Shown here: piece by piece, positions 29,283 to 62,035 of the stretch
Layout of the letters: every line of letters begins with the position of its first letter
How positions within the stretch are numbered: the stretch's first letter is position 1
Assembly: GCA_000165425.1 (NCBI GenBank)
Contig: CT867995.1
Location: 147,173 to 211,172 of the forward strand
DNA length: 64,000 nt
Reading direction: 5' to 3'
DNA from: Paramecium tetraurelia
Lineage: Eukaryota
The notes under the pieces: model-generated
Database searches by the model: none
Told to the model about the DNA's origin: nothing
The model's input: only the letters and a program-made list of their open reading frames with translations
Program-made: the position numbers and the translations under genes

Positions 29283-30275
29283 ATGAATCAATAATATGAT
29301 GATTGGCCATAATGGTGGAATGAAGTCAGAAGATAAAAGTTCGGGTATAAATTAAGAATTCATAATTTTTAGAAGTGAAACACCACCAAGAAGATGTAAG
29401 AAAGTTCAAATAATTTAGATGAAATTACGGTTCCTTCCATTACTGCGCATACTTGGGTCATCCTGGATGCCTAGACTGGTAGATTGATTTGGGGGAAGAA
29501 TGAACACTCTAATAGGGAAATAGCATCCATCACCAAGTCTATGACAGCTTATGTTACTATTAAAATTTGTGAATAACTCAAAATAGATCCAACCCAAGTT
29601 ACAGTTTCTGTCTCAGAATATGCAACTCAAATAGGTGGAACATCCTCCAATTTACAAGAAGGAGATAGTCTCACCTTATTGGATCTCCTGCATGGATTAA
29701 TGTTACCATCAGGAAATGATTCTGCCTAAGCCATCGCTGAGAATTTTGGAGTCTATCTTTATTTTCAATCCAAATATTTCCAACAAAAAATCGATTCTAT
29801 TGATAACGACAACAATACCATACATGTCAATAATCCTGCATAGTATTTTGTAGCTGAAATGAACGCAACTGCTCAAAAACTAGGACTCTCTAATACTTAC
29901 TTTACTAATCCCCACGGTCTTGCAAATAGATTAAATAGATCCACTGCTTACGATGTCGCTAAATTATGTTATTATGCTATGAAATTACCATTATTCGCTT
30001 AAATCGTCAGAACCAAAGAATACTCCTGTACTGTTACTAATCTAGGATAAACTCGTGTCTTGAAATGGGAAAACACCAACAAACTTCTAGAACAAGGCTT
30101 CTCAGGGATTAAAACTGGAGTAACCAATGATGCTGGTCCATGTTTGGCCAGTCATTTTATTAGTAGAAAACACAGCTACATACTTGTAGTTCTTAATTGC
30201 AACTCAAAAGAATAAAGATGGGTTGATAGTTGTCGTCTTATTGATTGGGTAACTGACATATATGAAAAATAATGA
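29283..30275 (+). CDS. Serine-type D-Ala-D-Ala carboxypeptidase (peptidase S11, DacA/PBP5-like)
   Basis: EIASITKSMT (SxxK), LMLPSGND (SxN), FTNPHGL, STAYDVAKL, NTNKLL, GIKTGVTNDAGPCL (KTG); two tiny 5' introns. Confidence 0.92.
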
Positions 30276-52675: not shown

Positions 52676-53272
52676 TCATTAATTGGTAAATTATTGGCCC
52701 AATGCAAAAAACCAAAGAAGTCCACTGATTTCGTAATCCTTTTCCTGAGCCAACTACAATATTTCATCAGCCAAAGTCTTTCCCATATTCATTTTGTAAA
52801 CAATAATGTTCTCATCTGATTCCAATTCTTATTTTGGATTGAGATTAACTTCCGAATCCCCATCGATGTCAACAATAATGCTTACTTCATTCTCTGTAGA
52901 TTTCCAGGGGTCGTTTCTTATGCGTACTCCATTATATTGAAAATGCCTGATCTGTGCTGTATATCCTGTTTCCTCTTTAATTTCCCTTAGACCATTCTCT
53001 TCTATGGTACCTTCTTAATCTACTAAGCCTGATGGGAATTCCAGACAAAACTTTCTAATGGGAGGTCTAAAATTGGCAATGAGAATCAGCTGAGATGGTT
53101 TTTCTTTGTAATTGATGATGGGTATGATTTCTACACCACCTCTATGACCTGGAGGTCTTTCAACAAACTCCCATATTTTTTTGTGTCCATTAACTTCAAA
53201 ATGGAGGAATTTGTAATGCAGCCACTTGCCTTCATAGATTAGTTATTCATCAACCTTAGTATTGAAATCCAT
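52676..53272 (-). CDS. Nudix hydrolase, ADP-sugar pyrophosphatase (NUDT5-like)
   Basis: YEGKWL, WEFVER, FRPPI...LEFPSGLVDQEGTIEENGLREIKEETGY. Confidence 0.88.
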
Positions 53273-56457: not shown

Positions 56458-57264
56458 AATTGATTATTATTTTTAATAAACTAAATATATTAAGAATTAC
56501 AAATCTTTGAAAATTATTTGAAAATAGAGAATGCAAAGTATTATCTAAAATTTGTAATTTAAGTCTTGTAATACATAATTATAGTTTAAGATATTAAAAA
56601 AAATAACATTATATTCATATTCTCATAAAAAAAAGACAAAATCCCCTTTCAAAGAATATATACTTTGTATTTTAATTATTATTTTTTTTGATTTTTAATA
56701 ATATTTGTTTAAGCTATTACAAAAACAAATTTACATTTTATTATCTTTAAATTATTAAGTTATGTTATATCTTAGATTAATAAGTTAAATGATTGTATCT
56801 AAAGAATAAACAGCTTACATAAATGTTTTTAATTCAAAATTATTTTCAGATTTTGATTTTGAGCTTTTAAGAATCCTATCTGAATAGCAGTTGTTATTTG
56901 TGATACAACGCAAGATACATTAATTGTTTCTTGGACTCTAGATGATTATATTTAATGGCTTTGTTTTTTATCAATATGAATACTACTAAATTTGATTCCT
57001 ATTCTAATTATTCATGCATATGTAAATGATTATTTGAATTTTACCTATCCTCATCCCATTTCAAATATGAAGTTGTAAATAATTTACCAATACTTTTAGG
57101 ATTAATTTTGTGTTGGTAAACTAATCATACTTTAATTCTCTAGAATATTCAACTATCCTAAATAGTATCATAAACAATTCATTCTTATTTGATTAGGAAT
57201 TTTAATTATTTCTGATAAAAATTGATATAAAATTTAGTTTAAATGCAAAATAATATTAATAAAA

Positions 57265-58789
57265 ATGGAATAGGAGGTAGGAAAAGTTTGTTTGGTAGAA
57301 GTGCCAATTGAAAAGACATTTCTATTTTAGGATTAGATTACAATAGACAAAAGTCTTTCCACTTTGAGAGAAGGATTATCTTATAGATTTATTCAATCTT
57401 TTATGAATCCCCAATAAAAGTTGTTGATTGTGTGTCCACCAACATATGCTCTAAAAGAATTAGATACTAAAGCAAATAATAAAAACCTTTTTGATGGGAA
57501 AGGATATATCAAAGCGCTTCCAAAGGCTGAGTACCCACATGTTGTTGGATAATAATCAGGCATGAGAAGTGCCATCATTAAATAGAATGGAAAAAATTAT
57601 AGATTAAAAGGTTGTGGAAATGGGACTGACGGTTTTACACTGAGAAAATTTGAAGGGGACATAGAAAATGCAGTTGAAATAAGAGGATGTTGTTTTGATC
57701 ATACAGTCAAAAGAGAACTTTTTATGAATAGAAAGGTTGAATAAATATTAAAGAAATATAACATAGAAACTGGTAATATTAGTATTGGTTATTGGTAATA
57801 TGGAGATGTTGAATCTATAAATGAAAATTTAGAGAAGAACTTGTAAAATGAAATGTCTTTAGTTCCAAAATATTGTGGAATCTATGAGACAATTGGTGAT
57901 TTCAGACTTGGAACACATTTACTTCAAGGTCTTAGAATTATTGTAAGTTCCAGTGTTACTGATTGGAGTGTCGATGATATTAGACGATTGGTTACAGTTT
58001 AATCAAGGATTGTAGAGAATAGAAAGTCACCAAATGGAAATCCATGGGATCTTAATAATACATAATTCAGAGAGAGACCATAAGGCACAATATTTTAGGA
58101 GGATGATTATCAAAATAATCGAGTATTTGATTGGGAAAAAGAAAAGGATAATGTTAGTATCACAGAAAATTTAAATGTAAACTCAAAGCTATAAAATATA
58201 AGTATTCTTTATTAAAGGATTGGATATGAAATAGGAAAAGTAAAAAGAATATTTATTGACAATGACATCAGTTGGGGATATTTCAGGGATCATAGCAAAT
58301 TTTATTATCATAGCAATGCTCATTTAGATAATTTTGTTTTAATTTAAAATGGATCTAGCTTACTAGCTCCAGTAGATTTTGATCTTGCTTTCTGGTATTT
58401 ATTGTTATTTATTTATTAGTAAAGAAGAGTTCATTAACATTGACATTGATTTTGATGCACAACTTAATAAATCTTCAGAGATTTAAGAAAATAAAAATTA
58501 TGGTAAATTTGATTTGGAATAATGGTTATTTTATCAGGATCAAGAAAGAATTGGTTTAGAATTAGCAATAGGAGGGATGGATATGATTTTAGCAAGTCAT
58601 ATGTTTTTATAAAAATAAAAAACAGATGTTGAAGAATATATTGAGATACTTTTAAGAGATTAAATGAGGATTGGATATTTAGAGGGAATGCAATTAAAAG
58701 ACGATTCTAGTTTATTTTATTAAAGAATGGATAAAATACAAGATATAATTAAAGAAGCTTTAAATTTGACTCAAGACATAATTTCTTGA
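57265..58789 (+). CDS. Atypical kinase-fold protein, candidate SelO-like pseudokinase
   Basis: GQQSGMRSAII...YRLKGCG...RG......RE...GDFRLG...SWG...HSNAHLDNF...PVDFD; one 25-nt intron 58395-58419; about 500 aa. Confidence 0.7.
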
Positions 58790-59009
58790 ATCATAATATA
58801 ATTTATTATTATTGATTTTTAACACACTTTATTTAATTACTATCTTTAATTAATTTAGATTTTGTATATTTATGTAATGAAATCCTCCCTTTAGTGATTC
58901 AAAATAATTACATATTTCGTTAAATATTAATACATTGAAATTTTATTTTTTAACCTGTTTAATTGGAAAATAGTAAAAAACAAATTTGATTATTGCTAAG
59001 AATATTATT

Positions 59010-61300: not shown

Positions 61301-62035
61301 TCAATTACACATAAACTAATTTAATCTCTTCTTCTTGAACCATTCATCGAAAAACTATTCCTTACGAATATCATTTTCAAATCCATAATGATAATTTTTG
61401 AAGGTGAAATCAACAACATCTTAATGCAATTTCAATTTCTGTAACACATCACAAAGTACAAGCCAACTCAATCCATAAAACACTTGTTTTTCTAATTTAT
61501 AATAGGGGAACTATTAATATTAAAATCCCTTCATCACAATATCAGATAAGTATTGTTATCTCTCAACAGTACGAACAAATAAATGGACTGATTTGTTTTT
61601 GTACTTTTTAATACTCATGTTCTATAAACTTATCGAGTTCAAAGGCAATCTCATTACTCTATCAACTTCATTCTCATTCGGGATAAAATCCACATGTCCA
61701 TCCAATTAAAAGATGTGAGCTGCTATCATTAGATGCTTGTTCTTTGTATAGTATGCTTGATAATTCTTATCCATTCTTCCCAAATGATGGCTTTCGTTTA
61801 GATTCACTCCGATTTCCTCTTGAGTCTCTCTTATTGCTGCCTACAATGTATTTTCATCCTTTTCCACTTTGCCACCAGGAAATGCAATCTAACCAGAATG
61901 AGGATCTCTGGCATTTACTTTACGCTTGATCAGCAGTATTTCATTGTTATTCATAATGACGGCCACTGCAGTTTGAATTATTTGAGGATTGTACAGAATG
62001 GTTGAATTTGAAAGAGTTTAGCGCAAAATCTACAT
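61301..62035 (-). CDS. Nudix hydrolase, CoA-pyrophosphatase-like (NUDT7/8 type)
   Basis: AVAVI...LLIKRKVNARDPHSGQIAFPGGKVEKDENTLQAAIRETQEEIG. Confidence 0.88.

Follow-up and report, generated by a model that had tools for sequence, protein, structure and literature searches.

A kinase-fold protein of Paramecium tetraurelia from an unnamed, mostly protist family with SelO-like features and a putative tie to ubiquitin-like conjugation

Introduction

Is a kinase-fold protein that has lost the catalytic Asp of ordinary kinases a decayed pseudokinase, an atypical kinase, or an enzyme with a chemistry of its own? This question is raised by a gene of Paramecium tetraurelia on contig CT867995.1 (assembly GCA_000165425.1), which lies at positions 57265–58789 of a 64,000-nucleotide stretch of the forward strand (contig positions 147,173–211,172; this whole stretch is referred to here as the window, and all coordinates are given in its numbering). 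An earlier reading of the letters, referred to here as the sequence-only reading, had taken the product for a distant branch of the SelO superfamily with a possible cytosolic nucleotide-transferring activity. We found that the locus is an expressed two-exon gene read in the ciliate code, and that its product belongs to an unnamed and widespread family, mostly protist, that is without a Pfam, NCBIfam or PADLOC model and whose modelled fold resembles that of protein kinases. Some relatives are fused to, or encoded beside, E1, E2-like and JAB proteins, a new clue that the sequence-only reading had missed. The best explanation, which we hold at even chances, is that the family comprises ATP-using kinase-fold enzymes of non-canonical transfer chemistry tied to ubiquitin-like conjugation.

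Unexpected chemistry has been found time and again in kinase-fold proteins without the catalytic Asp, including AMPylation by SelO, glutamylation by SidJ and transfer of nucleotide monophosphates (NMPylation) by the NiRAN domain. The last of these, in nidoviruses, is a kinase-like nucleotidyltransferase said to share a SelO-type active site.

Results

An expressed two-exon gene and its family

Under translation table 6, an ATG open reading frame (ORF) runs from 57265 to 58443 on the forward strand and a second frame stays open to 58789; the two are joined by removal of a 25-nucleotide phase 2 intron (58395–58419) that starts with GTA and ends with TAG. The resulting 1500-nucleotide coding sequence (CDS) holds 499 codons and a TGA stop (58787–58789), with 18 TAA and 5 TAG codons read as Gln and no in-frame TGA. 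Exon 1 (57265–58394) encodes residues 1–376, the first two bases (TG) of Cys377 and the whole series of motifs, Gly-rich loop through DFD, and exon 2 (58420–58789) supplies the third base of Cys377 and residues 378–499, aligning to the C-terminal third of the orthologues; the Cys restored across the split codon (TG, then T) matches the ‘AFCKEEF’ of the orthologues.

In stranded oligo-dT RNA-seq, two runs (X21 and X22) cover ~57222–58746 with first mates on the minus strand only, and the RNA is therefore that of the forward strand. A 1540-nucleotide contig (X5) covers 57259–58823, the transcribed span, and lacks exactly 25 letters at 58394, so that the table 6 gene and its intron stand just as the letters had suggested. 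Another contig (X3, from a run whose kind is only guessed) spans 57319–58486 and retains the 25-nucleotide intron at a word depth of 463; it opens with an adapter-like loose end and is possibly genomic DNA or unspliced RNA.

Over its full length, the product shares 88.6% identity with a 499-residue protein of P. primaurelia, and the values for its P. sonneborni and P. bursaria counterparts are 84% and 41%. These identities mark the window as macronuclear DNA from the P. aurelia group. All six motifs named in the sequence-only reading were located in the translation in the order given there: GQQSGMRSA at residue 95, YRLKGCG at 112, RG-x7-KRE at 140–151, DFRLG at 212, HSNAHLDNF at 349 and PVDFD at 369. 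The protein is a stand-alone, probably cytosolic member of its family.

The 26 relatives returned by a word-indexed search all lack a precomputed Pfam domain, and phmmer, run exhaustively over 1.84 billion representatives, returned 493 at E≤1e-3 (277 at E≤1e-10 and 37 at E≤1e-30). The relatives that carry source names are eukaryotes (Paramecium species, the sponge Geodia, Pterocystis, Colponema, Anaeramoeba, Diplonema, Lacrimia and Diacronema), the family’s clusters in the ESM Atlas are mostly labelled Rotifera and Ciliophora, and the stand-alone copies on two metagenome contigs adjoin eukaryotic genes (SDE2, a DHX37-type helicase, cwf21 and EF-hand proteins).

With TGA as the sole stop, table 6 readily gives long ORFs (61 ATG ORFs of at least 170 codons in the window, several overlapping on opposite strands), and a chance ORF or a pseudogene in AT-rich DNA could have looked much the same from the letters. 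The strand-specific RNA coverage, the precisely spliced contig, the identity to an orthologue of the same length and the 493 representatives with conserved motifs all contradict this; spliced RNA, family size and motif conservation rule it out, and we leave it only a vanishing probability.

No existing model describes the family. A Pfam scan of both window exons gave no accepted match (only DUF7698, E 0.012, below its cut-off), a Pfam scan of 25 relatives found no family model, an NCBIfam and PADLOC scan of the P. primaurelia orthologue found no match, and phmmer and profile searches against PDB sequences returned no usable match. Searches with the family alignment profile (A1) of 401 Pseudomonadota genomes found no true relative (three weak matches, all to one helix of TetR-type regulators); no family relative was found in five SelO-bearing genomes, and IMG/VR gave no viral relative (31 pattern matches, none confirmed). 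In the open-access literature searched for SelO, ThiF, JAB, E1-like and kinase-like links, no description of the family was found.

Two public gene models within the genus are unusual. A second P. primaurelia protein of 484 residues (P0005) lacks nine residues that include the Arg-Glu pair of helix C (IRG---------QLF; A1 columns ~235–245), which points either to an intron wrongly called in the public model or to a whole-genome-duplication copy that is decaying. A search for longer named fused forms gave only the 689-residue P. pentaurelia model (P0305), which exceeds the other aurelia-group orthologues by ~190 residues, has a different end and a global identity of 67%, and looks like a gene model merged with its neighbour or with a missed intron.

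A predicted kinase-like fold with a conserved, non-canonical active site

An AlphaFold2 (AF2) model was built for the P. primaurelia orthologue from a 25-sequence alignment (predicted local distance difference test, pLDDT, 78.1; predicted template modelling score, pTM, 0.84). The insert at residues 244–298 is disordered, and the acidic N-terminus is modelled as confident beta-strands (residues 11–20, pLDDT 93). Nearly all of the Foldseek matches listed are kinase-fold chains, among them WaaP, ROP kinases, Bud32, maltokinase and YdiU, and a second structural alignment likewise gave kinase-fold chains, in agreement with the kinase-like fold expected from the letters. As modelled, the fold is thus protein-kinase-like (PKL), with a beta-rich N-lobe that includes helix C and a helical C-lobe.

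Columns were counted over 158 relatives, and active-site residues were assigned by model position and motif spacing rather than by coordinate superposition. By this assignment the nucleotide- and metal-binding set is kept: Lys115 in 150/150, Glu151 in 147/153, Asn356 in 158/158 and Asp371 in 156/157, located in the model by strand 110–115, helix 145–163 and the loops after strands 357–359 and 367–369. On the contrary, position 351, the place of the catalytic Asp of the kinase HRD motif, is Asn in 149/158 relatives, Ser in 8/158 and Ala in 1/158; it is Asn in the window protein.

The motifs that surround these residues, all on the forward strand, are nearly as constant. The equivalent of the Gly-rich loop, S98-G-M-R101-S102-A103 (57556–57573; family form SGxRSA, with S in 145/146, G in 146/146, R in 143/146 and S in 146/146), lies between model strands 92–98 and 102–107, and the ATP-binding Lys is placed at the end of strand beta-3 in R113-L-K115-G-C117-G118 (57601–57618; G116 150/150, C117 144/150, G118 149/150). 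Arg140 and Gly141 precede helix C, which holds Arg150 and Glu151 (57682–57717; R140 144/153, G141 152/153, R150 126/152). The motif D212-F-R214-L-G216 (57898–57912) places after strand beta-5 an Arg found in 158/158 relatives, its neighbour at 213 being Arg or Lys in 143/158 and Phe here. A Trp337-Gly338 pair (58273–58278; 158/158 each) comes before the catalytic loop H349-S-N351-A-H353-L-D355-N356 (58309–58332; H349 148/158, H353 157/158, position 355 Asn in 116/158 and Asp in 41/158), and D371-F-D373 (58375–58383; F 130/157, D373 156/157) is the DFG-equivalent metal-binding motif. Arg113, Asn171, Tyr179, Cys204 and Glu419 are also invariant or nearly so.

Conservation of these motifs in 158 relatives, together with the closely matching orthologue, amounts to more than chance. 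The pattern favours, without proving it, an enzyme whose active site is non-canonical over a decayed kinase, and the protein is predicted to bind ATP and Mg2+ and to catalyse a reaction different from the usual transfer of the gamma-phosphate.

Fusions and operons with E1, E2-like and JAB proteins

Domains were counted by phmmer over 168 stored relatives and by a Pfam scan over 44 relatives. An N-terminal ThiF/E1 domain was found in 9/44 by Pfam and in 9, plus 1 marginal, of the 168 by phmmer, three of the ThiF fusions coming from protist transcriptomes (Pterocystis, Diplonema and Lacrimia), and 4/168 relatives have a JAB domain at the N-terminus, its JAMM motif (HTHPx4FLSxxD) intact. Among relatives of at least 640 residues, 13/28 have ThiF or JAB, and the kinase-like domain follows the E1 or JAB domain in all 13.

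In the longest fusions (P0100, P0127, P0128 and P0342, with a variant form in P0072) the N-terminal ~400 residues carry QWHPNACGxHA ... THW, a Gln...Cys...His pattern in a region in which Pfam recognises nothing and which we read from this pattern as a putative Cys-protease-like (deubiquitinase-like) domain ahead of the E1 and PKL domains. Three single relatives have other domains before the PKL domain, namely a rhomboid (P0126), a zinc-dependent dehydrogenase (P0155) and an acylphosphatase (P0143); these fusions were seen once each and are possibly merged gene calls.

A metagenome scan with an alignment of the JAB-PKL proteins found 29 loci, of which five hold the full gene (L087–L091, from two lineages ~31% identical). 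All five show the same compact, same-strand order of E1, E2-like and JAB-PKL genes. The E1 proteins (~600 residues) have ThiF matches of 1e-35 and 1e-30 and match the PADLOC models for E1-E2 (Cap2-type) and BilD; the E2-like proteins, in one or two copies of 141–144 residues, carry the motif PP-x4-I-x-H-x-N...C, and an AF2 model of one gave Foldseek matches of which nearly all listed are UBC/E2 chains, including the E2 of a cyclic oligonucleotide-based antiphage signalling system (CBASS). FtsK/SpoIIIE-like and PLD-like genes are among the neighbours. No separate beta-grasp gene was seen in the E1/E2-like/JAB-PKL loci, in which no systematic search for one was made. CapK, a kinase beside Bub and CBASS operons, was considered and rejected as a relative, being an unrelated GHKL kinase. 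The accessible portion of Iyer et al. (2006; PMC1779556) mentions no kinase-fold partner in E1/E2/JAB operons.

Taken together, the eukaryotic fusions and the prokaryote-type operon linkage tie the kinase-like domain to ubiquitin-like conjugation machinery, and we infer from these relatives that the family works together with that machinery.

A sister operon (L103:7265–11075) encodes an E2-like protein (135 residues), an E1 (603 residues) and a JAB protein (554 residues) with a coiled-coil-like tail in place of the PKL domain, so that the C-terminal module of the JAB protein seems exchangeable. A PKL domain that serves as one such variable module could be a non-catalytic, ATP-binding pseudokinase, that is, a sensor or scaffold whose nucleotide state would control partners in the ubiquitin-like pathway, and Asn at the place of the catalytic Asp is what known inactive or weakly active pseudokinases show. 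However, ~20 active-site positions, including His353, Asp373, Cys117, Cys204 and Arg214, are near-invariant among relatives that are 25–35% identical, a conservation that exceeds the usual need of nucleotide binding alone, and we consider the pseudokinase reading unlikely.

A fixed C-terminus and the comparison with CBASS

The last residue of the relatives is Ala in 78, Ser in 21 and Gly in 15, that is 114/158, against ~20% expected from composition, and it closes a common register, A-L-[ILM]-x-T-x-[DNE]-x-[IVL]-[AGS]-COOH. The tail of the Paramecium protein, L-T-Q-D-I-I-S-COOH (58766–58786, forward strand), follows this register and ends in Ser. Among the nine ThiF fusions, six have Ala or Gly as the last residue, and the JAB-PKL proteins end in Phe, Ser, Asp or Val.

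According to Jenson et al. (2023; PMC10097602), bacterial cGAS has Gly or Ala as its last residue only in operons with Cap2 and Cap3, Cap2 conjugates cGAS to targets, and a C-terminal Ser abolished conjugation; the introduction of a preprint (10.1101/2024.11.21.623966) states the same precedent for cGAS conjugation. From the fixed Ala/Ser/Gly end and this precedent we reasoned that the kinase-like protein may itself be the client of the E1. Against this stand the ends of the JAB-PKL proteins, which are not Ala or Gly, the Ser of the Paramecium protein, the very residue that abolished conjugation in cGAS, and the C-terminus of SelO, which is conserved too, for other reasons.

The likeness to the CD-NTase, Cap2 (E2-E1) and Cap3 (JAB) proteins of type II CBASS is one of possible working and not of family membership: in both, an enzyme without a beta-grasp fold has a gene that travels with E1, E2 and JAB and a small conserved last residue, and the E1 proteins of the family operons match the PADLOC E1-E2 and BilD models. 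The differences are that the family has a kinase-like fold whereas the CD-NTase has a Pol-beta nucleotidyltransferase fold, and that in the family operons E1 and E2-like are separate proteins and JAB is fused to the PKL domain.

By this analogy the family might be the kinase-fold counterpart of the CBASS CD-NTase, a proposal that we advance tentatively and regard as possible but doubtful. In it, a SelO-like nucleotide-transferring protein would have its C-terminus (...T-x-D-x-I-Ala/Gly/Ser) adenylated at the carboxylate by a dedicated E1, passed to the E2-like protein and conjugated to targets, and the JAB or Cys-protease domain would reverse the modification. The operons (E1, E2-like and JAB-PKL) and the protist single chains (Cys-protease-like, E1 and PKL) would then be two packagings of one system, and stand-alone proteins of the Paramecium type would be eukaryotic remnants served by an E1 encoded elsewhere.

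SelO or an atypical kinase

In the second structural alignment the highest score was that of PRPK (6wqx_D, Z 12.6, with the lowest root-mean-square deviation, 3.0 Å over 186 residues), followed by Bub1 (12.4) and the SelO protein YdiU (6lna_B, 12.4); six further SelO/YdiU entries score 12.2 to 10.7, which puts seven within the top 22 rows. NiRAN or nsp12 chains are not among the structural matches listed, an absence that proves nothing.

Such scores could be those of a Bud32/PRPK/RIO-like atypical phosphotransferase or ATPase that binds ATP in its usual orientation and transfers or hydrolyses the gamma-phosphate, with His353 or Asp373 replacing the catalytic Asp; consistent with this, no top row exceeds the 17% identity of yeast Bud32, the best Foldseek rows are WaaP, a ROP kinase and Bud32, the H-x-N-x-H-x-x-N spacing fits the canonical HxDxxxxN loop, and the segment after DFD is short, as in Bud32. 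However, Bud32 and RIO retain the catalytic Asp that is replaced by Asn or Ser throughout nearly all of the relatives, and the Bud32/PRPK chains align over 183–198 residues, mostly from about residue 79, versus 233–245 residues for SelO/YdiU, whose alignments start from model residue 1 or 5 and include the N-terminal extension. Relative to Bud32, PRPK (of KEOPS) and RIO, the family adds this beta extension at the N-terminus, a hairpin that separates beta-3 from helix C, and the disordered insert, and Bud32 and RIO are not known to have anything that corresponds to its invariant N-lobe Arg residues. The nearest named Atlas clusters, moreover, are SelO-like and not Bud32 or RIO. The sequence-only reading had allowed for a closer match to APH or RIO kinases, and here the outcome is divided: Pfam kinase, RIO, Kdo and APH models match none of 25 members at E≤1, but PRPK ties with SelO structurally. 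On balance we find an atypical kinase of this kind unlikely.

Language-model features and motif order point to SelO. The 30 nearest ESM Atlas clusters comprise 26 that are unnamed and eukaryotic and 4 that carry PF02696, the SelO/YdiU model; among the 30 nearest named clusters, PF02696 occurs in 22, on only 14–35% of their members, such that SelO proteins are the family’s nearest named neighbours by these features. The motifs are co-linear with those of E. coli SelO (GDGR, LKGAG, DGRA..IRE, RFG, HGVMNTDN and DYG), the shared forms being a G.R.A loop, LKG[AC]G, R[GA] before helix C, RE within it, R[FL]G, H......N and D[FY], and both groups have an exactly conserved C-terminus and lack the HRD Asp. 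According to a review (PMC8097203), SelO uses Lys113, Glu136, Arg176, Arg183 and Asp262, the Lys113/Glu136 pair holding the buried gamma-phosphate together with Arg176 and Arg183, and Asp262 being that of DFG. Candidate equivalents occur in the same order in the family (K115, E151, K/R202 or R/K213, R214 and D371), with different spacing.

The differences from SelO are as plain. The family has DFD rather than DYG, His at –3 from the Asn and two invariant Cys, and its own recurrent partners, E1, E2-like and JAB. Only about 125 residues follow DFD in the Paramecium protein versus ~220 after DYG in E. coli SelO, and the large C-terminal helical domain is missing; E. coli SelO ends ...VSCSS, whereas the Paramecium protein has neither CxxU nor Cys-x-Ser-Ser at its end, as the sequence-only reading had noted.

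The best named Atlas cluster, ‘MchC protein’ (score 0.95, 187/256 features shared), was examined as a bridge to SelO; 35% of its members carry PF02696, and the G.R and VKGxG motifs of MchC are similar by eye. The MchC of E. coli CFT073, which acts in maturation of microcin H47 (L086:27322–28869), has no PF02696 match, however, and hhalign of A1 against it finds nothing; no MchC relatives were found in the 401 Pseudomonadota genomes, so that no MchC profile could be built. Matching neither PF02696 nor the family profile, MchC was rejected as a bridge.

Weighing the evidence

Sequence comparison with SelO was made against two sets, because the first, 121 enterobacterial SelO proteins at least 79% identical, held too little diversity; 80 diverse bacterial SelO proteins from GTDB loci, 46–93% identical to E. 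coli SelO, were added. The results weigh against the reading we favour, as do several others. PF02696 matches neither the window exons at E≤10 nor 25 relatives at E≤1, the family hidden Markov model scores all 121 SelO proteins below 0, hhalign of the 158-sequence family profile against the 80 bacterial SelO gives a probability of 0.2% in local and 0.05% in global mode, and hhalign of the A1 profile against E. coli SelO shows no link; the sequence methods tried connect the family to neither SelO nor any kinase family. The structural match to SelO is tied with those to PRPK/Bud32 and Bub1, Foldseek places WaaP, ROP kinases and Bud32 above YdiU (ranks 25 and 35), and no Foldseek match of the AF2 model reaches E≤1e-3. 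The Asp of the SelO ‘DN’ pair (Asp355), although present in Paramecium, is mostly Asn in the family and therefore cannot be its essential base. Replacement of Asp by Asn at the HRD position is, furthermore, a classic mark of inactive pseudokinases.

The ubiquitin-like link, for its part, rests on 13/168 relatives and five loci from two lineages; the E2-like call comes from a weak model (pLDDT 64.6, best E 1.4e-2) and from our reading of one motif; the Paramecium protein itself has no E1, JAB or Cys-protease-like domain; and a Pfam scan of 59 window ORFs of at least 170 codons found no ThiF, UBC or JAB.

The idea of a distant SelO branch, as drawn from the letters, has thus come through in part: fold, co-linear motifs and Atlas neighbours favour it, but the profile-profile comparison it had called for failed to link the family to SelO, and the SelO-type ‘DN’ Asp is not a family feature. 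We find the family SelO-like by shape and by language-model features and not demonstrably SelO by sequence, and we put membership of a SelO-like clade at slightly better than even. Canonical orthology, which had already been doubted from the letters, has a probability close to nil. A plain SelO orthologue, or a distant stand-alone, redox-linked SelO AMPylase with no ubiquitin-like link, would account for the co-linear motifs, the structural tie with YdiU/SelO and the Atlas neighbours; it is contradicted by the profile results, by the lack of the long helical domain and of a C-terminal Cys or Sec, and by the recurrent E1 and JAB partners, and we judge it improbable.

Other genes in the window

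The window scan found a lipase, a cyclin, a tyrosine phosphatase, two protein kinases, MORN, B-box, UCH, RING and START domains and two NUDIX domains, ordinary genes unrelated to the kinase-fold gene, and any E1, E2 or JAB partner of the Paramecium protein must be encoded outside the window. The NUDIX ORFs lie at 52679–53272 (minus strand, E 3.7e-8), ~4 kb upstream, and at 61304–62035 (minus strand, E 1.4e-20), ~2.5 kb downstream; NUDIX enzymes hydrolyse nucleotide-X compounds, and the flanking position is probably a coincidence in a eukaryote. The ORF at 29394–30272 (forward strand) gives a strong match to Peptidase_S11 (D-alanyl-D-alanine carboxypeptidase, E 3.5e-52). Enzymes of this family act on the cell wall of bacteria and are unusual in a ciliate nuclear genome, and the gene was possibly acquired horizontally.

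Discussion

In the reading that we favour, ATP and Mg2+ would be held by Lys115, Glu151, Asn356 and Asp371. The chemistry that we prefer, at somewhat less than even chances, is transfer of a nucleotide monophosphate: with ATP bound in the flipped orientation of SelO, the AMP moiety and not the gamma-phosphate would be passed to the acceptor. Whichever the chemistry, the protein would either have its role in a ubiquitin-like E1/E2/JAB pathway or come under the control of one.

Should the family prove to consist of ordinary atypical kinases or inert pseudokinases, the finding shrinks to the annotation of a new family. As it stands, a large family without a model, spread across many protist lineages, has acquired through its fusions and operons a hypothesis of coupling to E1, E2 and JAB proteins. 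The AMPylation field gains a candidate that would be cytosolic rather than mitochondrial and for which clear mutants can be named. If the coupling is true, the kinase-fold protein would be the second enzyme, after bacterial cGAS, to act as a ubiquitin-like modifier through its own C-terminus, and here it would do so in eukaryotes as well.

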